Positions 2,865 to 28,950 of a stretch of 55,365 nucleotides of DNA are shown one piece after another. A program made the position numbers and the translations under genes. Numbering within the stretch: position 1 is the first letter of the stretch; every line of letters begins with the position of its first letter. Source of the DNA: an uncultured virus (IMG/VR IMGVR_UViG_3300001041_000010). Lineage: Duplodnaviria; Heunggongvirae; Uroviricota; Caudoviricetes. Below the pieces are notes generated by a model. It saw nothing but the letters and a program-made list of their open reading frames with translations. It searched no databases and had not been told where the DNA came from. The DNA lies in IMG/VR virus record IMGVR_UViG_3300001041_000010. One strand, 5' to 3'.

Positions 2865-3125
2865 TTAATCTGGTATTACGATCTCGGCAATTTTACTTTT
2901 GCCCATTTCGTAAAGTTGTTCTTCACTAAGTAAAACAGTCTTAGTTTGATCAGCAAACCATTGTAGGATTTCATCAGAACCAAGTTCTATTGGCTCTAAG
3001 GCAGGTCCCTTATCAGCAGTAAACGTAAGTAAAGTAGATGCAGGATAAATACTACCATTCTTATTGGGATAACTTCCACTTAGTGGTGGTCCATGACCTT
3101 CAGAGTTTGATAATTTATATCCCAT
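2865..3125 (-). CDS. hypothetical protein with shared C-terminal tag (LYEMGKSKIAEIVIPD)
   Basis: ORF track; start moved to ATG GGA TAT after AAAGG. Confidence 0.7.
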   Translation of the reverse strand: MGYKLSNSEGHGPPLSGSYPNKNGSIYPASTLLTFTADKGPALEPIELGSDEILQWFADQTKTVLLSEEQLYEMGKSKIAEIVIPD

Positions 3126-3513
3126 TGCATGCCGCCTTTCTTTTAGCCAGATAGGTTCGCAGGTCCATAGTTCCCTTATCATTATTACACCGCTTACAAC
3201 AACAGGCATAATTATCTAAGGAATCGCGCCCTCGTCCAGAATAGTCTGCTCGGCAAACAATATGATCGACTGTAACTTCTGGATCATTAGGGTCTAAGCG
3301 AGCATGACAAATATAACAAGTATAATTATCACGAATCAATGCCTCTTGTCTCATACGCTTCTTGTCTTCTTTAGTAACGAGAAGTCTGATAGCATTGCTA
3401 TTAATCCACTCAGCACCTTGACGGCGAACTAATTGATTAGCGATCATCTTCCGACAGGGTTTCAGAAGTTTGCCTGTGGGATGATACACATCAATTATTG
3501 CTGCTTCTTTCAT
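3115..3513 (-). CDS. HNH endonuclease with N-terminal PLMP/RRXRR-like segment (IshB-like)
   Basis: RDNYTCYIC..TVDHIV..NYACCCKRCNNDKG is an HNH motif; N-terminal VYHPTGKLLKPCRKMIANQLVRRQGA resembles the PLMP domain. Confidence 0.8.
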   Translation of the reverse strand: MKEAAIIDVYHPTGKLLKPCRKMIANQLVRRQGAEWINSNAIRLLVTKEDKKRMRQEALIRDNYTCYICHARLDPNDPEVTVDHIVCRADYSGRGRDSLDNYACCCKRCNNDKGTMDLRTYLAKRKAACNGI

Positions 3514-3515
3514 GT

Positions 3516-3719
3516 TTAGTCCTCCGGAATAGAGATGTTAAGAATACGTTGTCTACCCTTCTCATGAAGTAATTCTTGATCAGTATAACTTATAGTTTCA
3601 TAACTACATCCTGGGCAAATTAGCCATAGATCACCATAATGATCGATTGTATAATGATAATAAACAACATACCTCCATTGACAATTAGGGCACTCAACTT
3701 CTACATTAAATCGCTTCAC
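3516..3719 (-). CDS. small zinc-ribbon protein with shared C-terminal tag
   Basis: CPNC..CPGC; ends LHEKGRQRILNISIPED; probable GTG start, uncertain. Confidence 0.7.
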   Translation of the reverse strand: MKRFNVEVECPNCQWRYVVYYHYTIDHYGDLWLICPGCSYETISYTDQELLHEKGRQRILNISIPED

Positions 3720-4377
3720 CAATCTCAGCTTCTTTAGACTTTGACTTGTCATAGTATTTACCGGCAAGCTTAATGGCAATTACTTCTTGTTCGGCGTCAA
3801 ACTTAGCAATCATTTCTGCTGTAGGATACGTATCAATTAATTCATTACGACGCCAAACATAAGAATCCTTACGAGGCTTTGATAAGTCAACAAAACTATA
3901 TGAAACGTCACGATCTTGAAGACCTAACTCTTTATTGAGTTGTAGTTCTAAGAATTGTTCTTCAGTGATGCGAGTAACAACATCGTAACCATGGTGAGAC
4001 ACGCGATAAGCAGTAACTAATACTACCATAGGAATGACATGGATGTCTTCAACATATCGTTGACAACTAACAAACATAATATCTTTGTAAAGTACAACAC
4101 TTTCCTGACCACCGACACCGTCCCATCCTTTAAGGGATTTGCTCGGATCAATGTCTCGACTTGTGTTTCGTTCTATTATGCTTGTTGGTCTTGATATGTC
4201 CGTGGGAAGTCTTGGTCTTACTAAATCCTTTTTTAAGGACTTCCTAATCTCCTTTTCTTTGGCGAGCGCTTCTTCAGGCGTTACTTGAGCCATACCGTGT
4301 TTCTTAGCAACAACATTAGCAGCATCGATAATCTCAAGAACTGATGTGCTCGGTACCTGCGGAGTCTTCTTGCTCAT
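3706..4377 (-). CDS. hypothetical protein
   Basis: 223-aa ORF with GGAGG RBS, packed between neighbours. Confidence 0.75.
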   Translation of the reverse strand: MSKKTPQVPSTSVLEIIDAANVVAKKHGMAQVTPEEALAKEKEIRKSLKKDLVRPRLPTDISRPTSIIERNTSRDIDPSKSLKGWDGVGGQESVVLYKDIMFVSCQRYVEDIHVIPMVVLVTAYRVSHHGYDVVTRITEEQFLELQLNKELGLQDRDVSYSFVDLSKPRKDSYVWRRNELIDTYPTAEMIAKFDAEQEVIAIKLAGKYYDKSKSKEAEIGEAI

Positions 4378-4912
4378 CTGGATCTTCCTCCTTTGTCATA
4401 TCCTTAAAGAGCTTAACGTACCACTGATTAGCAATCACATCGTCTGTAATAGCTTTGAGTTCATCTTCGGATTCAATGACGCTCCACCAGGAACTCTGAC
4501 CATAAATAACTTCTTTGAGTTCTGGCACAAACATCGCAGGATTATGCATTCGGTTAATACTTAAGACTAATGTCTCAGGATGATGAGAAATTATAAGCCC
4601 TATATCTACTTCGCCGAGTAAGATTCCCAAGTAAGTTTTACCACCATATTCTTCACCACAAGGTCGTACACCGACTAAGCATCCTACTTTACGAGAATAA
4701 AGACCTGGAACAATAGCAGCTTCTTTAGGCTGTTCAATGGCGCTTATAGTTAATGGATACTCGATATATCGTGATTTAAAGCCGTCACATTCGACTTCGA
4801 ATTCATCGTCTTCAACCTGTGATAGGTCTTGTTTGTTTAGTTTACATGCAAAAACTGTTTTACCAAAACTCTTTCCAAATCCACGATATTTACAGCGGCT
4901 ACACTTATGCAT
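4334..4912 (-). CDS. hypothetical phage protein with Cys-rich N-terminus
   Basis: 192-aa ORF, AGGAGG RBS. Confidence 0.75.
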   Translation of the reverse strand: MHKCSRCKYRGFGKSFGKTVFACKLNKQDLSQVEDDEFEVECDGFKSRYIEYPLTISAIEQPKEAAIVPGLYSRKVGCLVGVRPCGEEYGGKTYLGILLGEVDIGLIISHHPETLVLSINRMHNPAMFVPELKEVIYGQSSWWSVIESEDELKAITDDVIANQWYVKLFKDMTKEEDPDEQEDSAGTEHISS

Positions 4913-4914
4913 AA

Positions 4915-5100
4915 TTAATCCTCCTTAATAATATCTTCAAGTAATTTTCTACCACGGTCATGTAAGAAATCTTCATAAGCCTTACTTACAAGCCATCTAG
5001 TATTACAATGGAAGCACCTGATATTACCTCCACGTTTTAATGATCCCATAGATACATAGTGTAATAAATTACACTCAGGACAATGCGACGTAAACATCAT
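4915..5100 (-). CDS. small zinc-ribbon protein with shared C-terminal tag
   Basis: MMFTSHCPEC..RCFHCNTRW..LHDRGRKLLEDII; GAAGGAG RBS. Confidence 0.75.
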   Translation of the reverse strand: MMFTSHCPECNLLHYVSMGSLKRGGNIRCFHCNTRWLVSKAYEDFLHDRGRKLLEDIIKED

Positions 5101-5314
5101 CTTCTCCTTCAAATACTGGTATTTTAATTTCTTGAATATATTTTCGACCTTGAATGTATTGAGATCGTTCAGATTGATCTGTATAATAAATACGCTCAGT
5201 CCAACAATGATCGCATGAAGAACAATGTAATTTAAGATTTGTAAAGGCAACAAGAACAACATTAAAATGACATCGATGATTACACTCAGGACAACGAATT
5301 TTAAATAGGTTCAC
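5075..5314 (-). CDS. small zinc-ribbon protein with shared tag
   Basis: CPEC..CSSCDHCW..QGRKYIQEIKIP. Confidence 0.75.
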   Translation of the reverse strand: MNLFKIRCPECNHRCHFNVVLVAFTNLKLHCSSCDHCWTERIYYTDQSERSQYIQGRKYIQEIKIPVFEGEDDVYVALS

Positions 5315-5326
5315 TCACCAAACCTC

Positions 5327-5548
5327 CTAGTCTGGTATTACAATATCGTCAAGCATTCGGCGACCACGTTCATATAAATCTCGCTTCTCGGTTTCAGAAC
5401 CAGGTTCTGCTTTACCGATTAATTCTTTCTCGATCCATGTATAAGCGCATGCGGGACACTTTAGAGTAGCACCACGATACCAATTATGTTTTGATTCAAA
5501 TCTAACTCCTGCCTTACACACTGGACATAAGGTTTTGAATGTATACAC
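5327..5548 (-). CDS. small zinc-ribbon protein with shared C-terminal tag
   Basis: CPVC..CPACAYTW..LYERGRRMLDDIVIPD. Confidence 0.8.
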   Translation of the reverse strand: MYTFKTLCPVCKAGVRFESKHNWYRGATLKCPACAYTWIEKELIGKAEPGSETEKRDLYERGRRMLDDIVIPD

Positions 5549-5560
5549 TAATCAGACCTC

Positions 5561-5776
5561 CTAGTCTGGTATAACAATATCGTCGAAACACTTTTTACCT
5601 CGCTCATACAATGCCTTATCTGTTTGATTATCAGGAAGTCCTTCAATATTTTTCTCAGTCCAGAAATGACCACAGTTAGTACATCCTATAGATAGATCAT
5701 GATACACTAAAACATGAGTTGTGAAGGTATGAGTGTCTCCACATCTTGGGCAGGTAATTTTATAGTTGTTTGCCAA
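5561..5776 (-). CDS. small zinc-ribbon protein with shared C-terminal tag
   Basis: CPRC..CTNCGHFW..LYERGKKCFDDIVIPD. Confidence 0.8.
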   Translation of the reverse strand: MANNYKITCPRCGDTHTFTTHVLVYHDLSIGCTNCGHFWTEKNIEGLPDNQTDKALYERGKKCFDDIVIPD

Positions 5777-6016
5777 ATTTTAGACCTCCATTTGCACAAA
5801 ATCCTAATATTTGCTAAAATCCTGAAATCGGCCTGGATATATATGTGGATTTTTAGGCCCTTTAAGGCGATTTACTTAGATCGCCTCTTATGCCACCATT
5901 CATAAATTGCACGGCTAGGAACTACCCATATCCAGCAAACAAGAAAGAGCCCAGCCCACCAAAGGCAAACGAGTGGAAATCGCCATCCATCATTTTCAAT
6001 ACTGGGCCCATCTAAG

Positions 6017-6352
6017 TTAAACATCAGTATCCTCGTTTCTTTTACCAGCGGCTCCTAAGGTTAAATAACCAGGGTGACAAATACCATTTTCATCGGGTTC
6101 ACAAGCTTCCGGTACTTCAGCTATAACAAAACGATGACCACAAGAACAATCAATAGTGTAAACTTCGTTAATATTCCAGTCATCAAAAGCATCACCTAAT
6201 TTACTTTGCAAAAACCCACGAAGAGCCATAGGATCTAAAGACGTTCCAATAACCTTGATGTCTTCCCAATTATAGCCGGTCTTACAATTCATGCATTCTG
6301 TGTCTGTGTCATTTTCTTCTTCATCGATCACTACATTGACACTTTTGACCAT
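6017..6352 (-). CDS. hypothetical Cys-containing protein
   Basis: GAGGAG RBS; first gene after the promoter at ~6380. Confidence 0.7.
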   Translation of the reverse strand: MVKSVNVVIDEEENDTDTECMNCKTGYNWEDIKVIGTSLDPMALRGFLQSKLGDAFDDWNINEVYTIDCSCGHRFVIAEVPEACEPDENGICHPGYLTLGAAGKRNEDTDV

Positions 6353-6371
6353 TTAAATCACTCCTCATTAC

Positions 6372-6396
6372 ATATTATATCACAATTTGTAACAAA
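6372..6396 (-). promoter_or_regulatory. phage promoter: TGTTACA box plus extended -10 (TTGTTACAAATTGTGATATAAT)
   Basis: Same motif recurs upstream of transcription units at ~11850, 15490, 23900, 28360 and 36055. Confidence 0.75.
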
Positions 6397-6398
6397 AA

Positions 6399-6426
6399 TA
6401 CACCGACCCACAAAGAGGTCGGTGTA
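6399..6426 (-). terminator. probable intrinsic terminator hairpin (TACACCGACC..GGTCGGTGTA then T-tract)
   Basis: 10-bp inverted repeat followed by T5 on the minus strand, just upstream of the promoter. Confidence 0.65.
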
Positions 6427-6599
6427 TTGCCGTTACGGTAATATTGATTTAAGTAATTGTTTTAATAAAGCACTAAGAAGCTCTGGAGCTATTTCATATA
6501 GGCTAAATCGTACAATACCGCTAAAATCAATATTCCGCGAAGTACATTTTAGTTTCTTAATTTCAACACTTTGCCTAATAGTAGGCTTATCGCAACACA

Positions 6600-6881
6600 T
6601 TAGAGAATAGCCAGGATATCTCGTTCGTTAATTATCCAACAGTCTTTTTCATAAGCTTCGATAGGAACGCCCGTAAATTTAGCGAAGACCACTCGATCTC
6701 CAATTTGAACATCCATTGGAATTAATGCACCTTCTTCAGTACGAGTACCATTACCGATAGCCGTTACAACGCCTATACGGTGTGGATCGTCTTTATGGTC
6801 GACTCCAACTAAGATAATCCCAGATTCTGTTGTTTCTTCTGAATCGACCTTAACAGCAAGTCGAGCACCTAATAATTTCAT
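6600..6881 (-). CDS. groES: co-chaperonin GroES
   Basis: EETTESGIIL, GVVTAIGNG, PMDVQIGDRVVFAKFTG, INERDILAIL. Confidence 0.93.
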   Translation of the reverse strand: MKLLGARLAVKVDSEETTESGIILVGVDHKDDPHRIGVVTAIGNGTRTEEGALIPMDVQIGDRVVFAKFTGVPIEAYEKDCWIINERDILAIL

Positions 6882-6895
6882 TAAGTATGCCTCCA

Positions 6896-7924
6896 TTATG
6901 CAATGTTATTTAGTTTCTCAATCATCATGGGAAGTAGCTCATCAATGGCTATTCGCTTAATTCCGGAAATACCGGTATTTGGAGCGTAAACCATAGGAAT
7001 TTTATGGATCTTAACAAGCTCCTTAACCAAGTTAGATGTATGATGACTAATTGATGTCCAAACGTGAACTAATCCGTTAACTCGGCGCAAAACATTGATG
7101 ATTTCATCTTTATCAGCTTTAGGGTCGATATACTCAAACTCCGCTCCTAAATCCGTTAAGACATCCCTGTAATTGGCTTCTTCTCCGTAACCTCCCACGA
7201 TGCCAACGGTGTACCCTTTTAATTGGCTTGTCGTAATATGAGGTAGTTTTGTTTGCGAGGTTTTCCTTTTGCTTACTTTGATCTGATTACTTAATAGTCC
7301 ATCGTTTGGATAAACTTTAATAATCTTACCTGGAGTATTCTTATTGTCAGTATAATAAGCCACACTGACAACAGATCCGACATTGACACTAAATTTCTCT
7401 ACGTCATGTTTACTTAAAAGTACTTCATCTCCATCAACGATTGCCGTATAGCCTACATTGTTTTGTTCAATAATACCTAATGCTTCAACACGGGTACACG
7501 GCAGGGCATTTTTCTCTACGATCGTAAAGACATAGCGAATTGTAAATCCATCAGAAAGCATACCTGCACGTTCTGCTTTAATTAAATCACCATTTTCAGC
7601 ATGAATTGCAGTAGTAATACTCTCGGGGATAAAAATAGAATTACCATCGATAACTAGTGAGCCGCCCGTTAATTTACGTTCAAATCGACCAATATTAGAG
7701 ATTTCTTCGATAGACTCTTCTATTGGAATAGACGGTTTATTACAGATTGTTTCAGGTTTAAAGGATCTCAGTAGATTTTCAATATCCATGAATTTCTCAA
7801 TTTTCTCAAAGTAAACGCTACGTTGATTCGAAAGACGCGCATCTTCTAGTGCTGATATCTGCATAAGCCGAAAGATATCAGCACTGTCTTGAAGCGTTTG
7901 GTGTTGCTGCATATTTAAGTTCAT
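6896..7924 (-). CDS. protein with C-terminal DUF2325-like domain
   Basis: C-terminal VGIVGG..NYRD..VWTSISHH..IPMVY pattern. Confidence 0.6.
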   Translation of the reverse strand: MNLNMQQHQTLQDSADIFRLMQISALEDARLSNQRSVYFEKIEKFMDIENLLRSFKPETICNKPSIPIEESIEEISNIGRFERKLTGGSLVIDGNSIFIPESITTAIHAENGDLIKAERAGMLSDGFTIRYVFTIVEKNALPCTRVEALGIIEQNNVGYTAIVDGDEVLLSKHDVEKFSVNVGSVVSVAYYTDNKNTPGKIIKVYPNDGLLSNQIKVSKRKTSQTKLPHITTSQLKGYTVGIVGGYGEEANYRDVLTDLGAEFEYIDPKADKDEIINVLRRVNGLVHVWTSISHHTSNLVKELVKIHKIPMVYAPNTGISGIKRIAIDELLPMMIEKLNNIA

Positions 7925-7957
7925 TTTCTCACCTCCTTTCAACAAGATTCGGTGAGA

Positions 7958-8674
7958 TTAGTTAGTAAACTGGTAATTTGGTGCTAATGTTTTAGCCATA
8001 GTAACAGCCGCAGTAAGATCATTCCAGAATTGCTTTTTGGCTAAAAGTTTAGCTTCTTTGGTTTGCTGTCTTAAGACATACTGAGGATGAAAGGTCGGCA
8101 TCACTTGAATTCCATCAATTTCTCGCCAATTACCTCGTTCTTGAGTAATCTTTAAATTCGGATCGTCGCTTAGATATCGCAATGATTCATTACCTAGTGT
8201 TAAGATTACTTTAGGCTTAATAATAGCGATTTCATTAAGTAAATGGATTCCACATGCTGCAAGATCATCTGAAATAGGCGATCGGCCCTCGGGTAAACGA
8301 CACTTAATAATATTTGTAAGTCGAACAAGTTTACGGTCAACACCGGCTTTAATTAAGGTAATTGTAAAGAACATACCAGACTCTCCAACCAATGGAAGAC
8401 CCATAAGATCTTCCACGGTCGAAGGTGCTTCTCCGATAATCATCAAAGGCGAATTAATTGGGCCTGATCCGGGTACTGGCCCGCGATTCTCTGATACTCG
8501 CAAGCTGCAAATTTTACAGCGATAAACATCAAGACTAAGCTTATTCTGATCATCAAAGTTATCGAAGACTTGACCCATCGCTTGGATAACATCAGAATCT
8601 TTAAATCCCTTATCAACTAAACGAGCTTCGACTCGACTTAATTCAGAATTTACTTTGTCGATGTATTTACTCAC
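7958..8674 (-). CDS. uracil-DNA glycosylase family 4
   Basis: CKICSL, LMIIGEAP, LTNIIKCRLPEGRSP, MPTFHPQY; GTG start overlaps the upstream TGA. Confidence 0.92.
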   Translation of the reverse strand: MSKYIDKVNSELSRVEARLVDKGFKDSDVIQAMGQVFDNFDDQNKLSLDVYRCKICSLRVSENRGPVPGSGPINSPLMIIGEAPSTVEDLMGLPLVGESGMFFTITLIKAGVDRKLVRLTNIIKCRLPEGRSPISDDLAACGIHLLNEIAIIKPKVILTLGNESLRYLSDDPNLKITQERGNWREIDGIQVMPTFHPQYVLRQQTKEAKLLAKKQFWNDLTAAVTMAKTLAPNYQFTN

Positions 8675-9051
8675 TGGCTTGCTCCCTTGACTTGTTTCTC
8701 GAGTTCTAATAATTTCCGGATCAGTTGTGCCTGACTCAAGTCCATCAGATCCGAGCGTTCCCCGGCTACTAGACAGGCAACGCATACAGGCTTTCCCTCG
8801 GCATTGTCCTCCAGATCACTAACTGGAATAAGTTCATTACATTCCGAACAATAATTTGCATCAAGTAGTTCAGAGGCTTTAACTGCGACATCGCAATCAG
8901 CACATTGGGTAATGACAAGTGATGAATCCTTGTTTTCCTTAGTGATATTTGGAGCTTCATCAGCCATAGAAATAACGGCTTGTTTCTGGATATATCCCTT
9001 AAAACTAGTACTGGTTTTACAATGTGGACATAATTTTGGCATATTAATCAC
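8671..9051 (-). CDS. multi-CxxC zinc-binding protein
   Basis: Four CxxC pairs. Confidence 0.7.
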   Translation of the reverse strand: MINMPKLCPHCKTSTSFKGYIQKQAVISMADEAPNITKENKDSSLVITQCADCDVAVKASELLDANYCSECNELIPVSDLEDNAEGKPVCVACLVAGERSDLMDLSQAQLIRKLLELEKQVKGASQ

Positions 9052-9294
9052 CCTCCTAAAATTACCGTTTCCTCTACGGCATTAACTCATAGCGTGGCTT
9101 GTCTTTCGGTTTTTCCATGCTGAAACATACTCTTCATTATCCCAGTAAGGATCTACAATTGGTTCTTCATTGTACCGTGGCCTGTTCCAGTAGCGATATC
9201 CGGCCGCTCCTGCAAGTAAGCCGGATATCGCTGTAATTAAGATTGTCAGCACTCATAAATCACCTCACAGCAACGTCCTATTAGGATTACTCCC

Positions 9295-9552
9295 CTAACT
9301 ATCTTCGTGATCAGCAGGCCATTTAGGATTAATGATTTTCATCATATCGCTGGTAATCTCAGAGAAAGCAATTGTACCATCAACAAGAATCGTAGCTACA
9401 ATACTTTGCAATGCGGCCTTATAATCTGAACTATCGGCAAAATAAAGACTTTGAGCTGCAATATGAAGTAAATGAACTTCTTGATCTGACAACTTATTAA
9501 CAGCAGCTTCTAGTTTGTCAAGTTGCTTACACTGTTCACACTGTCTCGCCAT
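9295..9552 (-). CDS. hypothetical protein
   Basis: ORF track; start at MARQCEQC after GGAGAG. Confidence 0.6.
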   Translation of the reverse strand: MARQCEQCKQLDKLEAAVNKLSDQEVHLLHIAAQSLYFADSSDYKAALQSIVATILVDGTIAFSEITSDMMKIINPKWPADHEDS

Positions 9553-10501
9553 TACCATCACTCTCCAGTGGCGCAATTTGAATATTTGTTAGCGCTAGTT
9601 GTAGTTGCTGATTAAGTGTCGTCATTGTGGCACCAAGTAATACTTCATAGTCATCGACCTTATTACGAAGATCCATGATCTGTTTAGTATAGTTCTGAAC
9701 CGTCTTTAATCTTAGGGCTCCGCGTTTACTGAGTAATTCAGCGAAATCAGCCATTAGTTCATTGGCTTCATGAACAACATCCCCTTGAAGTCGATTACCG
9801 ATAAAATTACGTTGATCGACTGTATCGATCATAGGTAGCAGATCCATTGCCGTTGGTTCTATAGCCCAAGGATGTAAATCTTCGACTAGAGCTTTAATAT
9901 CTTTGAGTCGATCGGTTGACGACTTAGGAATAAAGACCGCCTTACCACGACTCATGATACTTACAGGATTGGTTTCTTTAATCATTCGGGTTACAATCGT
10001 ACGAACGGTATCTTTAGTATGATACTGAGTCCATTCGGTAAATAAGGCTTCGATGGATTGGACAATTCCCTTATAATCATACTCGACTAAGAAACTAGAG
10101 TCCCAGCTAACACGCATGAGCTCATTGTCGCGATCGTATTCCATTTTACCAACGGTGATGTACATAGGCTTTTCCTGAGCCTGGTCAATTACTTCGCGGA
10201 CCAGGTGGCGCATGACTCGCTTGTTATCACAAGCTACTTCACGAACAAGTAACTTAGCAGTCTTTGTGTTGCCATCGTATTGGATTTCTAAAGTTTGGGC
10301 AGCCGTTGCCGTTGCTCGTCTATACGCATCATGAGGTTTGATCTCATTAGGCATATAACTTAGCGGCAGATTATTCTTGGTAAATAACTTGGTCAGATCA
10401 TCTTTATGAATTTTGAGATCTGGAATATAATGAAATTCCAAGTGACCAAGTAAAATACTCGGATCAAGTTGATCATTAGTCTTTACAACAGTCGTTGTCA
10501 T
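9536..10501 (-). CDS. DUF6744-like protein associated with the AAA/vWA module
   Basis: DAYRRAT, LLVREV, GKAVFIP and a C-terminal coiled coil resemble proteins encoded near MoxR/vWA pairs in mobile elements. Confidence 0.55.
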   Translation of the reverse strand: MTTTVVKTNDQLDPSILLGHLEFHYIPDLKIHKDDLTKLFTKNNLPLSYMPNEIKPHDAYRRATATAAQTLEIQYDGNTKTAKLLVREVACDNKRVMRHLVREVIDQAQEKPMYITVGKMEYDRDNELMRVSWDSSFLVEYDYKGIVQSIEALFTEWTQYHTKDTVRTIVTRMIKETNPVSIMSRGKAVFIPKSSTDRLKDIKALVEDLHPWAIEPTAMDLLPMIDTVDQRNFIGNRLQGDVVHEANELMADFAELLSKRGALRLKTVQNYTKQIMDLRNKVDDYEVLLGATMTTLNQQLQLALTNIQIAPLESDGNGETV

Positions 10502-11107
10502 TTAATTTCCTCCTAGCCATACGTAATCTACAGGGTCAAAACCAGCTTTAGCTACAAGTATTTCACATTCTTTACGTGAGTCAGGCCAACCAGCTCGTCG
10601 ATATAGAGCTTCTGGTTCTGATGCCGACCATAAGAGTTGATCCCTGGGTATAATCTCATTATAATAAGGTTTCTTTTGATCCTTAAATTTCTCCTGATAA
10701 TAAGCAGGTTTATAAGCTTGAAAGATCCCCTTGCCATCCTCAGAATGTGATGTATAATGCATACGCATAAGTTTCCCTTTTGGTTGTTTCTGAGTATTAG
10801 TCACTAGTTCCTTACGAATTGCTCGATTATAATAGTCCCGAGCCATATCTAAAATGTCTTCGGGCTCCCAAGCAGTTAACGATAACTCAGTCTTATAAAG
10901 CAACTTTTGACTGGTATTCGTTAACTTTAAGATCAATATTTCAACTTTACCAGCATATTCTTTAAATAAGATCTTATGTCTAGTTGTTTCTTTAAAGTAA
11001 ATAGGAGCATCATCCCAAGTTACTGCTCTTGTTCCATTATAATTAATAATCACTGGAACCTTACAAGTCGACTCTGTAAATCCACTACTAAGTAATAAAT
11101 GCTTCAT
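10502..11107 (-). CDS. hypothetical protein
   Basis: ~200-aa ORF in the operon. Confidence 0.7.
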   Translation of the reverse strand: MKHLLLSSGFTESTCKVPVIINYNGTRAVTWDDAPIYFKETTRHKILFKEYAGKVEILILKLTNTSQKLLYKTELSLTAWEPEDILDMARDYYNRAIRKELVTNTQKQPKGKLMRMHYTSHSEDGKGIFQAYKPAYYQEKFKDQKKPYYNEIIPRDQLLWSASEPEALYRRAGWPDSRKECEILVAKAGFDPVDYVWLGGN

Positions 11108-12256: not shown

Positions 12257-12257
12257 A

Positions 12258-20589: not shown

Positions 20590-20638
20590 GTTGTAAACCT
20601 CCTGTTGTTAAGTCTAGGGAGGTTTCCCTCCCTATAAA

Positions 20639-21583
20639 TTACTTCGCCGGTGTAGCGGACGCGCCACCCAGTAATAGATTCGCACCAGCCGGTGTATAGA
20701 TTACTTCAACTTTATCATTAAATTTCTCAATAGATTTTAGTTGAAGCATCTTATCTGTTAAGCTGGCACTAATGGTTTCATTCGCTTTGGCTTCAGCTTC
20801 GGCAGCTACTTGTTTAGCTTGAGCATTAATCTTGGCATTATCAAGATTCATTTGGGCTTCGATTAAAGTTTTAGCTGCAGCCGATGTCGCTTGCTTTGTA
20901 GCATTTTCAGCGGCGATCTTGGCTTCAAAGCTCCCCTTAACGGAATCCGGCAATGTAATCCGTCTAAAGTTAAAACCTTCGATAACAAGGCCAACTTCAG
21001 CAAGTTCGGTTCTCATACGGGTTAATACTTTACCGGCAATTTCATCGCGTTTATCGTTCATGTCTAAAATAGAATAGGTACCGGTCGTGGCCATTAAATC
21101 ACTATTAAGTGTGTTACGAAGAACGTTGTGAGCAATCGTTTCGATACTAGCTCCACGATACTTCTTATAGAGTTTTTCAACATCACCAACATGATAAGCA
21201 ACAGAGACGTCAACATTGACATTAGGACCTTCTTTGCTCGGCGTATCAAGGGAGTCATTGCTTGGCGATCCTTCGTCTGCTCCGGCTGTGAGGATCAAAT
21301 ACTCTGTAGAAACGGGATACTCAACAAATTGACTTGTGAAAGGATTGACAAACTTGTAACCAAGTGTATCCTTAACGGTAATTTCACCGTTAATCTTGTT
21401 TTGAATAATACCAACGTAACCAGGTTTAACCCGATCAAAGGATACAAAAAGGAACCCTGCGATAAACATAAATATAATGACTAGGGCAGCACCACCAATC
21501 ATTGTATTACGTGCTTTAATCATGTCTCTGCGACGACGCTCACTTGGGCTCATCTGTTCGTTTTCGAAGTCTTTGTAACTCAT
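20639..21583 (-). CDS. SPFH/band-7/prohibitin membrane protein
   Basis: N-terminal TM helix, VKPGYVGI, VNVDVSVAYHV, Ala/Glu-rich coiled coil. Confidence 0.9.
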   Translation of the reverse strand: MSYKDFENEQMSPSERRRRDMIKARNTMIGGAALVIIFMFIAGFLFVSFDRVKPGYVGIIQNKINGEITVKDTLGYKFVNPFTSQFVEYPVSTEYLILTAGADEGSPSNDSLDTPSKEGPNVNVDVSVAYHVGDVEKLYKKYRGASIETIAHNVLRNTLNSDLMATTGTYSILDMNDKRDEIAGKVLTRMRTELAEVGLVIEGFNFRRITLPDSVKGSFEAKIAAENATKQATSAAAKTLIEAQMNLDNAKINAQAKQVAAEAEAKANETISASLTDKMLQLKSIEKFNDKVEVIYTPAGANLLLGGASATPAK

Positions 21584-21748
21584 CTCTTTTCTCTTCCTCT
21601 CTCTTATCGAGTCCTACATTCTTGGTTATGCGATCTCCGATCCAAGTTAAGGCCGGACGCGCAAAAAACCAGATTAGGACAATGATCATGATTAAAAACA
21701 TCAATGCACGTAGAAACATTTAACTAACCTCCTTTCCAACGAATCACG

Positions 21749-22060
21749 TTAATCCTCCTTTAGCCTTACTGACACCTCTAACAAAGTATAAACAAACTTG
21801 CTTATCTCAGCCGTTAGCTGATTAGCAACTTTATCTTTAAAGTTGTTACGATAACCATCACTTAAAGCATTTTCAACTAGCTTATTGATATGAAGTTTAA
21901 TCGTATGATCAATCGCATCTTTGTCAGATTTGAGAAGACGAAGTATCTCTTCGGAAAAGATTTGTCTGATTAGATCTTTCAAATCATCTTTAGAGATACC
22001 CATTTCGTTGTGAATCAGATTTTTAACAGCAGCATAGTTGCTACCAATAGTTCGACTCAT
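21749..22060 (-). CDS. hypothetical protein
   Basis: ORF track. Confidence 0.65.
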   Translation of the reverse strand: MSRTIGSNYAAVKNLIHNEMGISKDDLKDLIRQIFSEEILRLLKSDKDAIDHTIKLHINKLVENALSDGYRNNFKDKVANQLTAEISKFVYTLLEVSVRLKED

Positions 22061-22371
22061 TTTGATACTCCAATTATTCCATCAGGATATTGTTCGAACT
22101 CGGCGATAAGTTGACCAAGCCATGGAATGGCAAATTCATACGTGCCCCATCCGTTAGGTGCATCGTAGACTTTAAACCGTTCAGGGTCAGACATCATAAG
22201 ACTTAAACCATCCCACAAGGCAGGTAATACGGATTTTGCCGTTTGTCCTGCGGAATTATATAAAGCATTATAAACTCCGGCTGCTGACCACATTTTGCCA
22301 AGATTATGAGTAATGTTTTTATCTACGACAGTTACTTCTTCCATTTGAGTTAACCGGATATCTAAACTCAT
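22057..22371 (-). CDS. phage protein with NITHNLGKM..NGWGTYE motifs
   Basis: GGAGG RBS before MSLDIRL. Confidence 0.7.
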   Translation of the reverse strand: MSLDIRLTQMEEVTVVDKNITHNLGKMWSAAGVYNALYNSAGQTAKSVLPALWDGLSLMMSDPERFKVYDAPNGWGTYEFAIPWLGQLIAEFEQYPDGIIGVSK

Positions 22372-22373
22372 GA

Positions 22374-23870
22374 TTAATCCTCCCAAATAGCTGAATTCGT
22401 ATCGCGATCATCGCGAATTCTCACAAAACGCGGGTGTCTGAACTTTCCTGAGGCTAATCGTTCCATGGCTTCAAGTTCAATAACTTTACCGAGATAATCA
22501 CGATCAAAGTGATCGGTCATGTCTTTACGGATAGCATCGGTCATCCCTGAGGCCTTACCACAATCAAGTAATAAATAATGTGGAAGACGAGGAATACCAA
22601 GAACATCAGGATCAATAAAATCCTTAACTTTTACATTAAGTTCAAAAGCTTTAGCCTCAGTAATCCACTGACCGAATTTAATAGCGCCCAGCATACCGAC
22701 ATATTTACCTTCGTTAGCACCCTCCCAGCCAGTTACGATACAATCGGCCGTCAACATTTTCTTAACCTTATACCAATTCTTAGTAGGGCGGCCACCTTCC
22801 ATGTACTTTGCGTCAATGTGTTTAAACATGCCGCCTTCGAATCCCTTGGCGAGTATGTCACGTAAATACTGTTCTTTGTCTTTAATCGTATAACGACTCA
22901 AAATCAGCGGGAATGTTTCGGGATCATAACCAGGTAAGTTAGGAATCACATCGTTGAATAAGGCTGTAAGTTTCATACGACGGTATTTCCATTCCAGTTT
23001 TGTCAGATCAACTTTACCTTCTTGTAAGATGTCAAAGACTACAAGAACTAAATCCGTATTGTCTCGACCATCCTTAGAGTTTAAGTTGCCTGATACCGTA
23101 GCGCAATCGATCATACCGGCTTCTTCTAGGGTTTCTTTCGTCAAACTTGGATCATCAATTCCATTACGAGGTAATAACTCACAATCCAAGATTGTACCCC
23201 ATAACTCCTTAGGCCATTGAATGGTTTCGATGTGTGGCAAGTTATCCGTTTTCTCAATAGGCTTAGTACCATCTGTTACGCTGGCATTACGCCCAAAAGT
23301 TCTAGTCTTATCTGGTGTTCCATGAGCTGTAATCCGAATCCCATCATACTTTTGTTCTAAGACATAGTTTGGATCATCAATCAACGCTCGATGCTTACGG
23401 ATCGTATACTCAATAATGTCTTCGCCTTCTAATCGCTCACACTTATCATTAAAGGTTTGAGCGTTCTGAGGCCATAAGATACGTGGTTTATAATCATCCG
23501 TATCGATGGTCTTATAAGCACTAGTAGGTGGCGTATAGCGAGCTGGAGATGTATGCTGAGGCCCTGAAACATCTCCTTGATTTTCCTGATAAAATTTAGC
23601 TAATTTAGATTTAATCAGCTTTTCGTATTCATTACGAGCTTTAACTTCACTGACACCGGCATATTTACCGGCGACACTCATTGTTCCGCCGCGCTTGCCG
23701 TAAAAACCCGTAGCGTAATAATAATTCGTTGCAGGGTCATGGCTCATAATAGCAATATAGACCTTATCTGATCCGCCTTGCTGATTATATAAATCTGTGC
23801 GTTCAATTTCATCTCCTGTAAATTGAACGCCATTTCTACCACGACCATAACCCTGAATTTCAGTACTCAA
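22374..23870 (-). CDS. ATP-dependent DNA ligase with N-terminal WGR-like domain
   Basis: EQKYDGIR, ILDCEL, VFDIL, FEGGMFK, WYKVK, RHPRFVRIRDDR; N-terminal GSDKVY..YGKRGG..LIKSKLAKFYQ. Confidence 0.92.
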   Translation of the reverse strand: MSTEIQGYGRGRNGVQFTGDEIERTDLYNQQGGSDKVYIAIMSHDPATNYYYATGFYGKRGGTMSVAGKYAGVSEVKARNEYEKLIKSKLAKFYQENQGDVSGPQHTSPARYTPPTSAYKTIDTDDYKPRILWPQNAQTFNDKCERLEGEDIIEYTIRKHRALIDDPNYVLEQKYDGIRITAHGTPDKTRTFGRNASVTDGTKPIEKTDNLPHIETIQWPKELWGTILDCELLPRNGIDDPSLTKETLEEAGMIDCATVSGNLNSKDGRDNTDLVLVVFDILQEGKVDLTKLEWKYRRMKLTALFNDVIPNLPGYDPETFPLILSRYTIKDKEQYLRDILAKGFEGGMFKHIDAKYMEGGRPTKNWYKVKKMLTADCIVTGWEGANEGKYVGMLGAIKFGQWITEAKAFELNVKVKDFIDPDVLGIPRLPHYLLLDCGKASGMTDAIRKDMTDHFDRDYLGKVIELEAMERLASGKFRHPRFVRIRDDRDTNSAIWED

Positions 23871-23919
23871 TGTTTATCACCTCATTACTATTGTATCACA
23901 ATTTGTAACAAATTATACT

Positions 23920-24348
23920 CTAATCAGGGATCTTAATATCTAAGATTGAGTATCGACCGCGTTCATAGAGTTCTGTCATTGGCATTTCTTCTTCAAGCAA
24001 TAAACCTAGACGTTCGCGTTCGTCAATTGTTAAACCAAATCGGATAATGTCATCTCTCGTATTCGCAACCTGCGAATCACCAGATTCTTGTCAGCCCCAG
24101 CCGGTATAATCGCATCCAGCTCGAATAGCACCATAACGACCGTCTTTGAGTTTAACGACGATGACCCAATTGGCACCGTCGTTTTCACCATCAGCTTTAG
24201 CAATAACTTCTACAACATCTTCAATTGTAAATGGCGAACAATCAACCGTAAGAACACCTGGAATAAATGCTGTAGGTTTTGATTCTGTACCATCGGCATA
24301 AGCAAAGACATAGGGCCAATTATAGTCATCATCAAGTTCTGGTAACAT
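23920..24348 (-). CDS. probable selenoprotein (in-frame UGA at 24091-24093 in GCDYTGWG-U-Q)
   Basis: Frame stays open for 56 sense codons after the UGA and ends in the shared C-terminal tag LYERGRYSILDIKIPD; SECIS-like hairpin 10 nt downstream of the UGA. Confidence 0.75.
24059..24080 (-). promoter_or_regulatory. bacterial SECIS-like hairpin
   Basis: GUGAUUCGCA-GGU-UGCGAAUAC: bulged stem with GGU apical loop, 10 nt after the UGA. Confidence 0.65.
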
Positions 24349-24368
24349 TTAGTTTGGCCTCCTTGTCT

Positions 24369-24746
24369 TTACTCGGGAATTTGAATATCAGCAATCAAGT
24401 CGCGACCTCGTTGTTCCTCTTCGCTAATAACATTTTCGTCCATGTGCATGATCGTCATAGCGATCGACTGAATCAGTCTAGAAATAGTAATAAAGTCATG
24501 GGCTGGCTTTGTTCTTGGCTCTGCATTGAGAACATCAACTATTTTCTCATACTTTTCTTGAATACAATCTTGATACTTTAGAGTTTGATTTACATCTTCT
24601 TTAGTATTGATCATTTCATGAAACAAAGCCGATGTAAAGTCTGCAAAAGCTAAAGCAAGTACTGCATAATCTAATCCAATACCGGTATTTGCCATAGCTT
24701 CAGAAAGCTTATTAACATTAGCTTGTCGTTCTTCCTGGGTTAACAT
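24369..24746 (-). CDS. helical protein with shared C-terminal tag (EQRGRDLIADIQIPE)
   Basis: ORF track, AAAGGTGG RBS. Confidence 0.7.
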   Translation of the reverse strand: MLTQEERQANVNKLSEAMANTGIGLDYAVLALAFADFTSALFHEMINTKEDVNQTLKYQDCIQEKYEKIVDVLNAEPRTKPAHDFITISRLIQSIAMTIMHMDENVISEEEQRGRDLIADIQIPE

Positions 24747-24803
24747 TTATTTCACCACCTTTCTAATATATAATTTCCGCTCCCTGGAAGGGAGGAGCGG
24801 AAA

Positions 24804-25091
24804 TTAATAATACTTAATTAGATCATGATAACTAGTAAGTTCTTCCCATTGTTTATCGGGAATAGTTTGAAGTTCTAATAGAACTGAACTAACAAAAGTC
24901 TCGCCATCTTCATGCTTTAACACTTCATTAAGAAGACCAGCAAGTTCTGACATTGACATTGTTTTAAATCTAGTAACCAAGGAATAAAGATCCATAACTT
25001 CTTTTGGACCCTTATCGTGATAAGTATATGATCCGAATTCTTTAATTGCAGATTCAATAGCCTTAATACATTCATCTGCAGTAACTGGCAT
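24804..25091 (-). CDS. hypothetical protein
   Basis: AAGGAGGAG RBS. Confidence 0.7.
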   Translation of the reverse strand: MPVTADECIKAIESAIKEFGSYTYHDKGPKEVMDLYSLVTRFKTMSMSELAGLLNEVLKHEDGETFVSSVLLELQTIPDKQWEELTSYHDLIKYY

Positions 25092-25120
25092 ACTAACTCC
25101 TCCTTATTACTTAATTAAAC

Positions 25121-25357
25121 TCATATTGACTTCAAAGAACATAGTGCTGTATCAAGCATCGTAACGCCAACTTCATGTCGGTAATCATACATATCGATAC
25201 CGAATTCTCGCTCAGCTATACGTTCAATACCATTATAGATACGAATACGAAAGCCTCCATCAAAACGACTTGTGGCCAATAAGGCATATAACCCACCTCG
25301 ATCGAGACGAGTAACATTTCCATTAACACCGGTCACTTTACTCCATTCTTCTTCCAT
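25121..25357 (-). CDS. hypothetical protein
   Basis: AAGGAG RBS. Confidence 0.6.
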   Translation of the reverse strand: MEEEWSKVTGVNGNVTRLDRGGLYALLATSRFDGGFRIRIYNGIERIAEREFGIDMYDYRHEVGVTMLDTALCSLKSI

Positions 25358-25359
25358 AA

Positions 25360-27000
25360 TTAAGACTCCTTAAAGTCTTCGATCTTAAGTTGAAGACTTC
25401 GTTTGTTATTCCAAACGTTAATATCCGGAGAGAAGACAATATCAACAAAAACTGGAGTACCCATTTCTTCAAATTGTTCTGCCATATTCCAACCGACAAA
25501 TTCATAGGTTTTCTTATCACTTCGGCATATTAATTTCAAGTGCTGTTTATTAGCACCCATATAATTTGCCGTTTCAATTCTAAGATCACGCATCATGAAA
25601 TTAGGTCTGGAATTCCCCTTACCGAAGGGTGCAAGTTGTTGAAGACTCTCAGTAAACTCCATTGTCATTTGACTTGGCTCTACTTCAAAGTCAGCACGGA
25701 TTCGACGAATCAAACTTTCTTCGGTTAAGATACAGTTATCTAGTACGGCTTGTTTAAATAGCTCTAGATTATCCTGATGTATCGTAAGGCCACAGGCTAC
25801 CTTATGACCGCCGAATGCCGTGAGCATAGACTTATGTTTACCTATTGCATCAAACATGTCATAGCCATCAATTGAGCGCCCTGAGCCCTTAATAAACTCC
25901 GTGTGTTCGACATTCGTAAGTAAAATCACTGGACGATTAAGTTCTTCTCGAATCTTACCAGCAATCAAACCGAGTAATCCTTCAGGAAGACCGACTTCAT
26001 AGTGAACACAGATTAGATCCTCAGTATCTCGAAGTTTTTCTAATAAGCGTTCATAGACCTGGGCTTGTAATTCCTGACGATCCTTATTATGCTGAACTAA
26101 TTCCTTAGCAATTCGTAAGGCCTTAAGTGGTGATTTAGTAATTAATAACTCAACAGCCTTATGCGCTGTCTCTAGGCGACCAGTGGCGTTGATACAAGGT
26201 GCCAAAACAAAGCCAACGTTATAAGGTGTAATTTCTTTATCTTTCAGTTCTTTAACGCCTAATAGCCATTCAAGACCAATACGCTTCGTATGCTTAATAG
26301 CGTCAAGGCCGTATTTAACGATAATTCGGTTCTCATCGACTAAGTCAACAACATCCGCTATCGTCCCTAATGTAACGAGATCCAAATACTTATTAACAAC
26401 AAGAGGATCAAATCCATAACGGCGATATAATACAGCAGCGAACTTCCAGGCCACCCCAACACCAGCCAAACTATCAAAAGGATATTTGTGATTACTACAC
26501 TTAGGATCAATAATGGCAGCAGCCTTAGGTAATTCTGCCTGAGGCTCATGATGATCCGTAATAATGACTTCGATTCCCAAGGTTTTAGCATACTCGACCT
26601 CCTTAATTCCAGAGATTCCGCAGTCACATGTAATAATCAACTTTGTTCCATTGGCATGAAGTATAGCAATAGCATCACAATTTAGACCGTAACCTTCTGA
26701 GCGGTCGGGAATATAATAATCCACATCATAGCCAAGTTCGCGGAAGGTTAAGACAAGTAAAGCCGTACTAGTGACACCGTCAACATCGTAATCTCCATAA
26801 ACAGTTAACTTCTTGCCTTTATACTTATCCACAGTATCCACAGCCTTATCCACATTGGGAAGTAAGCTAGGATCATGAAGATCTCGAAGTGTACTATTTA
26901 AGAACTTATCTTTATCAGTAACACCTTTTTTATCCAAGATAAGCTCGATGAGATTATCATTAGAAAGGCATTGAGCGCCTATGCTCCATCGTTTCTCCAA
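25360..27000 (-). CDS. recJ: single-stranded-DNA exonuclease RecJ
   Basis: YGDYDVDGVTS, EGYGL, ITCDCGI, ITDHH, LGTIADVV, KGSGRS, FGGH, PFGKGN; TTG start after GAGGAG. Confidence 0.96.
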   Translation of the reverse strand: MEKRWSIGAQCLSNDNLIELILDKKGVTDKDKFLNSTLRDLHDPSLLPNVDKAVDTVDKYKGKKLTVYGDYDVDGVTSTALLVLTFRELGYDVDYYIPDRSEGYGLNCDAIAILHANGTKLIITCDCGISGIKEVEYAKTLGIEVIITDHHEPQAELPKAAAIIDPKCSNHKYPFDSLAGVGVAWKFAAVLYRRYGFDPLVVNKYLDLVTLGTIADVVDLVDENRIIVKYGLDAIKHTKRIGLEWLLGVKELKDKEITPYNVGFVLAPCINATGRLETAHKAVELLITKSPLKALRIAKELVQHNKDRQELQAQVYERLLEKLRDTEDLICVHYEVGLPEGLLGLIAGKIREELNRPVILLTNVEHTEFIKGSGRSIDGYDMFDAIGKHKSMLTAFGGHKVACGLTIHQDNLELFKQAVLDNCILTEESLIRRIRADFEVEPSQMTMEFTESLQQLAPFGKGNSRPNFMMRDLRIETANYMGANKQHLKLICRSDKKTYEFVGWNMAEQFEEMGTPVFVDIVFSPDINVWNNKRSLQLKIEDFKES

Positions 27001-27406
27001 TATTATCACACTCCTCAGGTTTACGATCGAAAATCGTTGTTTTCCTACCATCAGGATCAAACAAATTAGACTTTACAACAGGTTTTTCAGCTCTTAGATC
27101 GTCCATGTGTTTAGCCCACATATTACCTAGTTCACTAGGTTCACTTTCATAAGAGATTTTAATATTAGCAATAAATGCAAAGGGTAATAATACGATCGAA
27201 ACAACACTTGCTATAAACCAAAAGAATACCGTACCAGCAAGGCGAATAGGTGATGCTAAGATCGTAATCCCTGTGATCTCGGATGTTTTACCCCATGGTG
27301 TTGTTGTTTCACTCGTAATCATATCAATCCAAAACTGTCGCGTTACAATATGACGTATTGAAAGTGGAAAGTAAAGAAAGCTTTTAATTCCGTCCCAGTC
27401 AATCAT
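26960..27406 (-). CDS. putative membrane protein
   Basis: Hydrophobic central segment. Confidence 0.6.
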   Translation of the reverse strand: MIDWDGIKSFLYFPLSIRHIVTRQFWIDMITSETTTPWGKTSEITGITILASPIRLAGTVFFWFIASVVSIVLLPFAFIANIKISYESEPSELGNMWAKHMDDLRAEKPVVKSNLFDPDGRKTTIFDRKPEECDNIGETMEHRRSMPF

Positions 27407-27650
27407 TTGATCACCTTCCTAATGGCTTTATACTTAGCTTTACGCATCATGCGTTTAAACATGGCTTCGGGTCCTTCAATTATAGCTTGAATATCACCTA
27501 ACATGCCAACCATCTTATAAAGATCCTGTCGTATCTTACTTATGGGATTTGCCATATTAATTCCTCCTTGCTTCAAGTATATCAAAGGGTTCAGATAATT
27601 TAACCTGAACCCTTTGATATACTCCGTATGACTACGGAGTAGATATGTAG

Positions 27651-27944
27651 TTACTTAGGGCTTGCAAGAATACGAATTTTAGACTGACTACTACACTTAG
27701 CTCCATTAGCAGATGCTCGTAATCGCTCTGTGCCTTTATTCTGAAAATAAGCATAGATATCTGATTCACTTGGATTATATGGTTTACTTTTAGAAATTAA
27801 AGGTCTAGAATATTGTCTATTTGGAATGTCTGGAAATTCTGCACGACACATTGCAATGGTCTTTCCGTGAGTCTTTAAGTGGGAAGGATTTAAGTCATAA
27901 AATTCCCTCCCACAATAAGGACATGTAATTTTATCCAACGTCAT
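27651..27944 (-). CDS. zinc-finger protein (CPYC..HLKTH, MucR/Ros-like)
   Basis: ITCPYCGREF..SHLKTHG..EFP; start uncertain. Confidence 0.55.
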   Translation of the reverse strand: MTLDKITCPYCGREFYDLNPSHLKTHGKTIAMCRAEFPDIPNRQYSRPLISKSKPYNPSESDIYAYFQNKGTERLRASANGAKCSSQSKIRILASPK

Positions 27945-28317
27945 CGAGTTGAGCCTGTTCGAGTTTAAATTGTGCTGTAAGGAACTCATGATCCGCTTCA
28001 AAATCATAGTTTTGAAAGAGCGGTTGAACAGCAATTAATTCATCGTCCGTTATAACTTCAGCAGTGAATGGAATAGCGCCACTAGCAGCAAGTTCCGGAT
28101 GTTCAGCAATACCTTGTTTGATAACTTCTTCATCAATTACATAACGCATAATTAACGCGCCTTCGTCCGAATCTTCTTTAGGAAGTAGGCCTAAATACGT
28201 ATTGTCGTTGCTCTCAACTACGGCAACCACATTAAATTCATGTGATTGATTATCATTGTCGAAAACACAGACCATAGCACCTATGAATTTACGTTTAAGT
28301 TTTTCTAAGGATGTCAT
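27931..28317 (-). CDS. DUF1292-like protein
   Basis: DNDNQSHEFNVVAVVE..YLGLLP..LIMRY..ITDDEL. Confidence 0.6.
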   Translation of the reverse strand: MTSLEKLKRKFIGAMVCVFDNDNQSHEFNVVAVVESNDNTYLGLLPKEDSDEGALIMRYVIDEEVIKQGIAEHPELAASGAIPFTAEVITDDELIAVQPLFQNYDFEADHEFLTAQFKLEQAQLDDVG

Positions 28318-28405
28318 TTGAATTCCTCCAATTCATTTTATTACATTAAGTATAACATATTGTAACAAATTAAGCTAGTTCGTGATATTGTCAGAAATGT
28401 CAATA

Positions 28406-28600
28406 CTAATCCGGTATTATAATTTCACGGATTTTATCACGACCTATTTCTTCACGAGATTTCAATCGTGAAGTTAGATACCTACTAGGGATATCAAAAC
28501 AATGCTTGGTTTTATTACATAATTCGCATGATCCATAGCTTACAATGCCATTTGATTGATTGGTATAATTATTTGTTAAACACTGATTGCAAATAAACAT
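28406..28600 (-). CDS. small zinc-binding protein with shared C-terminal tag
   Basis: CNQC..CELC..EEIGRDKIREIIIPD. Confidence 0.7.
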   Translation of the reverse strand: MFICNQCLTNNYTNQSNGIVSYGSCELCNKTKHCFDIPSRYLTSRLKSREEIGRDKIREIIIPD

Positions 28601-28602
28601 AC

Positions 28603-28950
28603 TTATACCTCCGGTATAACAATAGAACGAATTTGAGCGGCCCCTGTTTCTTGTAGAGCATTGTCAATTGATCCATTCTTTCCCCATTCTAAGCCTGCTC
28701 TATATGCTTCATCCGGTGTAGGATTAGTATCACCAAAGATAGGATGAACAACGCCAAACCAATCACGGATACGCTTCGCGTCATCATGGCCATAATAGCC
28801 TGACATATAACCAATATTAGCATAAGCATTAGGATTCATAGTAAGATAAAGTTTCATAAACTCTTGGGCTTCTTCTCGTGTATCACACCGGTCAATACCA
28901 TTGCTCATTAAATCACCATAAGAATTTAGATTATAACCTTTCCATCGCAT
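28603..28950 (-). CDS. phage protein with shared C-terminal tag
   Basis: NIGYMSGYY..HPIFG; ends LQETGAAQIRSIVIPEV. Confidence 0.7.
   Translation of the reverse strand: MRWKGYNLNSYGDLMSNGIDRCDTREEAQEFMKLYLTMNPNAYANIGYMSGYYGHDDAKRIRDWFGVVHPIFGDTNPTPDEAYRAGLEWGKNGSIDNALQETGAAQIRSIVIPEV

Follow-up and report, generated by a model that had tools for sequence, protein, structure and literature searches.

The window analysed here is a 55,365-nucleotide (nt) stretch of DNA from an uncultured virus of the Caudoviricetes (IMG/VR record IMGVR_UViG_3300001041_000010), and it encodes ten small proteins that share a tag of about 16 residues at or near the C-terminus. The shared tag is real and statistically strong. 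It probably binds some partner, and our leading, still tentative, reading is that it forms a lineage-specific docking motif, by which the variable heads are held, in the manner of an adaptor, at a single hub in the cytoplasm. This window corresponds to the right-hand 55 kb of a virus record of 117,365 bases with a completeness estimate of 52%; the record is the part of the genome that was read, and the head genes sit in the other half. Because proteins of the window were also found on contigs of up to 226–230 kb and two loci from a 229,618-base contig are 100% identical to the record, the record is taken to be about half of a jumbo phage.

The ten tails named in the original prediction were all recovered where it had placed them, on the minus strand, in open reading frames (ORFs) that form three clusters (2865–5776 with six, 23920–24746 with two and 28406–28950 with two). 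They are listed here and are referred to by their lower coordinate.

5561–5776, minus strand: Zn-ribbon protein, 71 residues; tag 5564–5611, LYERGKKCFDDIVIPD-stop
5327–5548, minus strand: Zn-ribbon protein, 73 residues; tag 5330–5377, LYERGRRMLDDIVIPD-stop
5075–5314, minus strand: Zn-ribbon protein, 79 residues; tag 5114–5161, then 12 further residues
4915–5100, minus strand: Zn-ribbon protein, 61 residues; degenerate tag LHDRGRKLLEDIIKED
3516–3719, minus strand: Zn-ribbon protein, 67 residues, start uncertain; tag 3522–3569
2865–3125, minus strand: 86-residue protein of no known family; tag 2868–2915
24369–24746, minus strand: all-helical protein of no known family, 125 residues; tag 24372–24419
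23920–24348, minus strand: probable selenoprotein, 142 residues; tag 23923–23970
28603–28950, minus strand: 115-residue protein of no known family; tag 28609–28656
28406–28600, minus strand: Cys-rich protein, 64 residues, no detectable kinship to the five Zn ribbons; tag 28409–28456

Nine of these copies are clean and one is degenerate: the 4915 tag is one residue short, lacks the Pro and has IKED in place of IPD. The 12 residues that follow the tag in the 5075 protein overlap the ribosome-binding site (RBS) and start of the next gene. The 2865 gene, whose next neighbour downstream is the DNA polymerase III alpha gene, has an uncertain start with no clear RBS. The consensus, L1-Y2-E3-R4-G5-(R/K)6-x-x-I9-x-(D/E)11-I12-x-I14-P15-(D/E)16, was drawn from 12 clean copies (the nine here and three from a 3,554-bp record), in all of which G5, I12, I14 and P15 are invariant.

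For statistical assessment, each tag was scored with a leave-one-out position-specific scoring matrix of 16 columns, and so were the remaining stop-delimited segments from all six frames of the 117-kb record, 4,121 in number. Eight of the ten tags scored above all of them, the 5075 tag was beaten by 1 and the 4915 tag by 444. Among 178 genes, nine have the core pattern G-x3-[ILFMV]-x2-I-x-I-P in their final 30 residues and none has it elsewhere; 3,000 tail shuffles gave at most one match, a test that is partly circular, the pattern being derived from these tails. Blind clustering of the last 18 residues gave a component of 11 members, nine tagged proteins and two spurious joiners, against a maximum of 4 in 300 shuffles; the 5075 protein was missed because its tag falls outside the 18-residue window. 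The supposition of the original prediction that the motif would stand out against shuffled C-termini was thus borne out. A hidden Markov model (HMM) of the tag, the scan that the original prediction had proposed for the genome and its relatives, returned the ten known places on the 117-kb record and no others. A set of 141 loci retrieved independently of the tag, with 1.78 Mb and 18,838 open segments, contained one occurrence of the pattern near a stop, in a tag-unlike sequence.

Identity among the tags by codon position is 0.54, 0.64 and 0.34, and 119 of 270 same-residue codon pairs are identical where 104.5 are expected from genome codon usage. Because codon identity is near this expectation, the tag is conserved at the protein level; every one of the four Pro and three Ile codons occurs. 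Nucleotide conservation that goes beyond the encoded protein, as for a DNA repeat or recombination cassette, was not seen, third-position identity being 0.34. The original prediction had noted that the stop codon fuses with the following RBS in several copies; this is true of three (2865, 5327 and 5561) and of only these three among the ten. It had also pointed to near-identical DNA at 5323–5350 and 5557–5584, where 27 of 28 nt are indeed identical across the stop and RBS, in this one pair of paralogues only. Over the 48 nt of the tag itself the same pair (5327/5561) is identical at 33 positions and the next-best pair at 31. Tags from the same cluster do not clearly resemble each other more than tags from different clusters do (permutation p 0.07 for all sites, 0.12 for third positions), and no common fold of the tag RNAs was apparent by eye. 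The suggestion that the tag is a recombination junction therefore came out weak, with synonymous sites roughly as diverged as codon usage predicts, no clear neighbour effect and no common RNA fold. The same data bear on the explanation that the tail is a by-product without protein function of its own, which descends from the final part of an ancestral Zn-ribbon gene and was dispersed as either a recombination junction or a DNA cassette with an RBS. The tandem runs of tagged genes, the pair with 27 of 28 identical nt, the paralogy of five carriers and the one degenerate copy are all in its favour, but synonymous sites are scrambled while four residues are invariant over 12 copies in two records, the stop–RBS fusion is confined to 3 of 10 copies, and neither a neighbour effect nor a shared RNA fold was detected; we consider it very unlikely.

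Kinship among the carriers was examined with phmmer after exclusion of the tag. Five ORFs (3516, 4915, 5075, 5327 and 5561) are paralogous CxxC-CxxC Zn ribbons (E 3e-8 to 0.03), and the other five are related neither to them nor to one another. The carriers had been presented as about ten proteins of unrelated families; unrelated families do share the tag, but since five carriers are paralogous ribbons it joins six such families and not ten. None of the ten carriers passed a curated cut-off in Pfam, NCBIfam or PADLOC, no strong PHROG match was obtained, and the Zn-ribbon matches were sub-threshold.

The clearest sign that the tag was added comes from a comparison of the 23920 product with its homologues. 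The gene starts at 24348 and reads through an in-frame TGA at 24091–24093, which aligns with the Cys of the CDYTGWGC motif in a viral family (17 loci). All 17 viral homologues of this domain have Cys at the TGA position, a count that is biased in that one search pattern included that Cys. A candidate bacterial selenocysteine insertion sequence (SECIS) hairpin follows the TGA:

24059–24078, minus strand: candidate bacterial SECIS hairpin, 13–32 nt after the TGA; z −1.9, 11 of 200 shuffles folding as well

The product is thus a probable selenoprotein. The tag is missing in all 17 viral homologues of the domain, and the five best of them stop within about 10 residues of the start of the tag-bearing extension. 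The tag is likewise absent from a protein of Xanthomonas phage JGB6 that is weakly homologous to the 28603 protein (E 0.01). No homologues of the 2865, 24369 and 28406 proteins were found, and for these three portability therefore rests on their unlikeness to the Zn ribbons. Searches of viral loci returned none for the 28603 protein and one irrelevant-looking locus for the 5327 protein, and the ESM Atlas held no usable family for the 24369 or 28603 protein.

In the AlphaFold2 model of the 5327 protein, the ribbon spans residues 1–45 (predicted local distance difference test, pLDDT, about 90) and is followed by a helix at 52–67 and an extended IVIPD end (pLDDT 61–67). A low-confidence single-sequence model of the 24369 protein (mean pLDDT 55) likewise has a terminal helix and a loose tail (pLDDT 35–50). 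On the six families the tag is a short terminal peptide, separate from the variable head, and the two models show it unpacked on its own. Tag positions 1, 5, 9 and 12 share one helical face, and an invariant Gly in this face followed by Ile-x-Ile-Pro would be expected of a peptide that takes up its fold on a partner. With Foldseek, neither PDB nor BFVD yielded a match at E ≤ 0.001; the list of weak fold matches was led by the LysW and MJ0042/ZitP zinc ribbons (E 0.36–0.39, not significant). Like the five ribbon heads, the LysW carrier and the MJ0042/ZitP ribbons consist of a zinc ribbon followed by a C-terminal extension, but the LysW tail differs in sequence from the present tag, and five of the ten carriers are not ribbons of that family.

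The predicted geometry also suits a self-assembly module, in which the helix and the IxIP strand would pair mutually and the ten proteins would form homo- and hetero-oligomers with no outside partner. The invariant mid-helix Gly and the alternating Ile strand are appropriate for helix–helix and strand–strand packing, and a complementary motif was found in no host or phage protein searched. Sixteen residues would be few for a stable oligomer core, there is no clear reason for six unrelated heads to co-assemble, and the homologues of the selenoprotein domain manage without the tag, so that we regard this as improbable. As a degron or stability tag without adaptor role, the tail would set the half-life of its carrier and time its removal. 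It is C-terminal, short, portable and common to the carriers, as such a tag would be. C-terminal degrons of the ssrA and Prc type have a free hydrophobic C-terminus and are usually blocked by a terminal acid; the present tag ends in Asp or Glu in 11 of 13 copies, and one copy is extended by 12 residues, which makes this explanation highly doubtful.

Further tagged proteins are scarce. A profile search of 1.84 billion representatives gave 56 proteins, including six of the window's own; the full-length matches that end in the tag were three Zn ribbons (P0009, P0010 and P0023), each recorded once, the longest contig having 3,554 bases, and we infer that the three share this one contig. P0010 exceeds the TIGR02098 cut-off. 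Word-index protein searches returned tagged proteins only from this phage and the 3.5-kb record (8 matches among 123 candidates in one search, self only in another). A set of 26 leucine-rich-repeat proteins, found beside four own proteins in a word-index search, was put aside as probable repeated IxIP matches on the basis of Pfam labels alone. Degenerate DNA patterns of the tag matched 0 and 6 stretches in viral contigs, with no score above 8 for any of the 6 in the 20 residues next to a stop, and 93 stretches in metagenomes, where multi-copy stop-adjacent tags occurred solely in two loci 100% identical to this phage. In species genomes there were 7 stretches, of which three with scores of 14.9–28.5 near a stop were judged to be chance (open frames of at most 47 residues). 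Searches of 13 other phage records, Bacillus phage 0305phi8-36 and Moorella phage MTATph1 among them, did not reveal the tag (a positive control was run on the own record), nor was it seen in 1,419 ORFs called from seven of the 13 (two of them covered in part). Its known range is thus a single phage and one related record of small size. The rest of the genome contributed no additional tagged protein to the protein-search results, which hints that the ten may be nearly the full set. A literature search on shared C-terminal tags of phage proteins found nothing on this motif or such a system (the motif letters were not a query, and most subscription papers were outside its scope), and the motif is apparently undescribed so far.

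The original prediction had proposed a portable docking or address signal, and this idea, taken at the protein level, gained support from the amino-acid-level conservation, the untagged homologues (clear for one domain, weak for another) and the unpacked modelled tail. Because selection on the tail appears to act at the protein level, and because the tail appears to have been joined to unrelated heads and to be unpacked alone, a docking motif for one partner is the best reading. The tail would fold on binding into an amphipathic helix with a face of Leu1, Gly5, the hydrophobic residue 9 and Ile12, followed by the extended I-x-I-P strand, and small accessory proteins of six unrelated kinds would thereby be plugged into a single partner inside infected cells. 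The N-terminal head, which varies (Zn ribbon, helical bundle or selenoprotein), would contact a target while the constant tail secures the head at the hub. Since the 5075 copy has 12 extra residues, a free carboxylate is probably not required. The partner is presumed to be cytoplasmic rather than the prohead, a role favoured because the tagged genes lie in a stretch syntenic with the non-structural right arm of 0305phi8-36 and because the largest cluster lies behind a promoter-like box:

6378–6395, minus strand: promoter-like box upstream of the largest tagged cluster, putatively a promoter

This box (TGTTACA-x-x-TGTGATA type) has seven copies, at 6395, 11861, 15454, 23911, 28368 and 36067 (−) and at 44595 (+), all in the window half of the record; those that begin at 23911 and 28368 come directly after the other two tagged clusters.

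By analogy with known adaptors, the hub would most plausibly be a host Clp protease or chaperone, that is the N-domain of an AAA+ protease (ClpC or ClpX) or GroEL, and through such a protein-quality machine host proteins could be removed, occupied or redirected. In stand-in clostridial genomes ClpX was present in 14 of 14 and Clp N-domains in 13 of 14. The XB peptide of SspB, which binds the ClpX zinc-binding domain, is described as tethering fused modules to ClpX regardless of position (PMC12373786) and resembles the tag in that a short peptide at the terminus, flexibly linked, fixes a separate module to a hub. The present tag differs in having about 16 residues with a helix, in being phage-encoded and in its occurrence on six families; no sequence match was found, and ClpX binding is putative. 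The small non-structural protein Gp53 of the Firmicutes phage SPO1 is reported to be adaptor-like for Bacillus ClpC and was proposed to redirect this host AAA+ protease (PMC6873191), but it is described there as a single protein and the description gives no tail common to other proteins.

As a sub-case of docking to a hub, the I-x-I-P-D end could copy the GroEL-binding mobile loop of GroES and occupy or recruit host GroEL. The corresponding loops in three stand-in genomes read GIVLPD, GILIPD and GIVLPD, and the phage groES (6600–6896, minus strand), with a loop of its own without PD, lies about 0.8 kb upstream of the largest cluster. The likeness is limited to five residues, the helix and G5 have no counterpart, the middle residue of IxI in the tag is often Lys, Gln or Ser, no GroES fold was seen in the carriers, and 0305phi8-36, which is without tags, also has a groES in this position. 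We consider such mimicry a long shot. No phage GroEL gene was seen in the part read.

Several results weigh against docking to a host hub. At E ≤ 0.001 the tag HMM matched none of 301 bacterial genomes, a sample of one clostridial phylum, and matches at E ≤ 0.1 in 5 of 121 genomes are at chance level; because no host protein with the motif was found, no mimicked host ligand is evident. Among PDB sequences there was no match either (best E 2), and neither there nor in these genomes did the tag resemble a known adaptor tail or host protein. The nearest named relatives have host proteases of the same kind to deal with and seem to have no counterpart of the tag. The heads had no match to a curated family, whether of defence systems or otherwise, from which targets could be surmised, and they showed no likeness to other phage proteins among 1,594 called from this and seven other phage records. 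No result ties the tag to a particular partner, and a match to a scaffold or internal protein may exist, as the half with the head genes lies outside the part read.

The idea that the heads are bait copied from the phage's own proteins was dropped, as besides self and ribbon paralogues nothing better than E 0.01 was found among the same 1,594 proteins, which did not include the phage's own head genes. The FtsZ C-terminal peptide, the IXI motif of small heat-shock proteins, the single-stranded DNA-binding protein (SSB) tail and the encapsulin and microcompartment peptides were considered as candidates and dropped without a sequence match, as was docking to the MIDAS of the phage MoxR/VWA pair, which is also present in untagged relatives.

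If the reader of the tag is a host protease or chaperone, the ten proteins would be a natural modular set of adaptors and a possible tool for Gram-positive bacteria. It is a bold and rather unlikely extension that the phage lineage evolved a modular toolkit for targeted degradation, with a 16-residue anchor for a Firmicutes AAA+ protease or chaperonin and interchangeable heads, including a selenoprotein, as ten natural 'degraders' of chosen host proteins; the anchor would then be a new, transplantable handle for Gram-positive protein degradation. Small phage proteins mostly lack an assigned function, and a selected common tail would group ten of them into one system.

The phage is a relative of 0305phi8-36, which is syntenic and is matched by 44 of 175 called genes at E ≤ 1e-5; at the same threshold 26 genes match MTATph1 and 2–9 genes match each of five further phage records. 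The part read encodes tail-side structural genes, replication genes, GroES, the MoxR/VWA pair and many small genes, and no capsid gene was recognised among 55 genes scanned in it. This gene content bears on the explanation that the tag is a capsid-loading or ejection signal. In this view it would attach to the scaffold or core of the prohead, and diverse small counter-defence proteins would be packaged and enter the cell together with the DNA, much as with the T4 capsid targeting sequence but from the C-terminus. The T4 capsid targeting signal is N-terminal and is removed by a protease, which speaks against a simple equivalence, and the present tag is C-terminal in 10 of 10 carriers and of other sequence, the only common N-termini being the Zn-ribbon starts. 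Moreover, the ten tagged genes are all among replication and accessory genes, and the motif is on none of the structural genes in the part read, outside which the head genes lie. A partner evolving together with the phage would fit the narrow lineage range. In plan, the best precedent is offered by the T-even internal proteins, which are described as highly diverse small defence proteins with only a targeting sequence in common (PMC3012670); in the same way a conserved short tag was found here on diverse small accessory proteins. The right arm of 0305phi8-36 is described as non-structural with a few virion genes, and for its paralogue family a the same account proposes a virion-anchoring common domain of about 50 residues, internally repetitive and located on virion proteins (PMC2147016). 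This family resembles the tag as a small common element fused to different proteins in the same lineage, but the present tag has 16 residues and was not found in 0305phi8-36. Taken together, capsid loading is in our view an unlikely but serious competitor of the cytoplasmic hub; with the prohead as reader, the tag would be a C-terminal packaging signal for jumbo-phage cargo.

From gene content we infer that the host is a spore-forming, selenocysteine-using clostridial bacterium. A spore-forming host is suggested by three genes in the part of the record outside the window: a 49-residue gene (31209–31358, plus strand), which we take to resemble a small acid-soluble spore protein, and an M23 peptidase with an FtsK/SpoIIIE-like gene (32820–35497, minus strand).

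Other C-terminal regularities were seen. Six proteins end in x-P-F, similar to an SSB tail (window 14107, 26960 and 46432; record outside the window 31380, 58178 and 60663), and they include two SSB-like proteins and the MoxR ATPase. In 0305phi8-36, of the same lineage, several unrelated proteins share a different tail, partly of low complexity: a run rich in Lys, then an acidic stretch with Phe or Trp as the last residue.

A second DNA run of low depth covers the tagged cluster in short pieces only; the covered tags are without differences, an uninformative result. This run differs from the window almost solely in an HNH gene (3164–3420) and a small gene (5789–6025, at about 5830–6000), which hints at local exchange. 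The window also encodes a 1,179-residue protein (38482–42021, minus strand) without a match in four family libraries or the two named relatives, and a 211-residue protein (37229–37864, minus strand) without a match in Pfam, PHROGs, PADLOC or NCBIfam, whose Gly-rich C-terminal loop presumably recalls RAMP/Cas7 proteins. A tRNA-Lys and odd tRNA-like elements were located on the minus strand at 32143–32293, 33670–33747, 36155–36223 and 44663–44732; among the tRNA-like elements of the window, two have unreadable anticodons and two were detected by Rfam alone.

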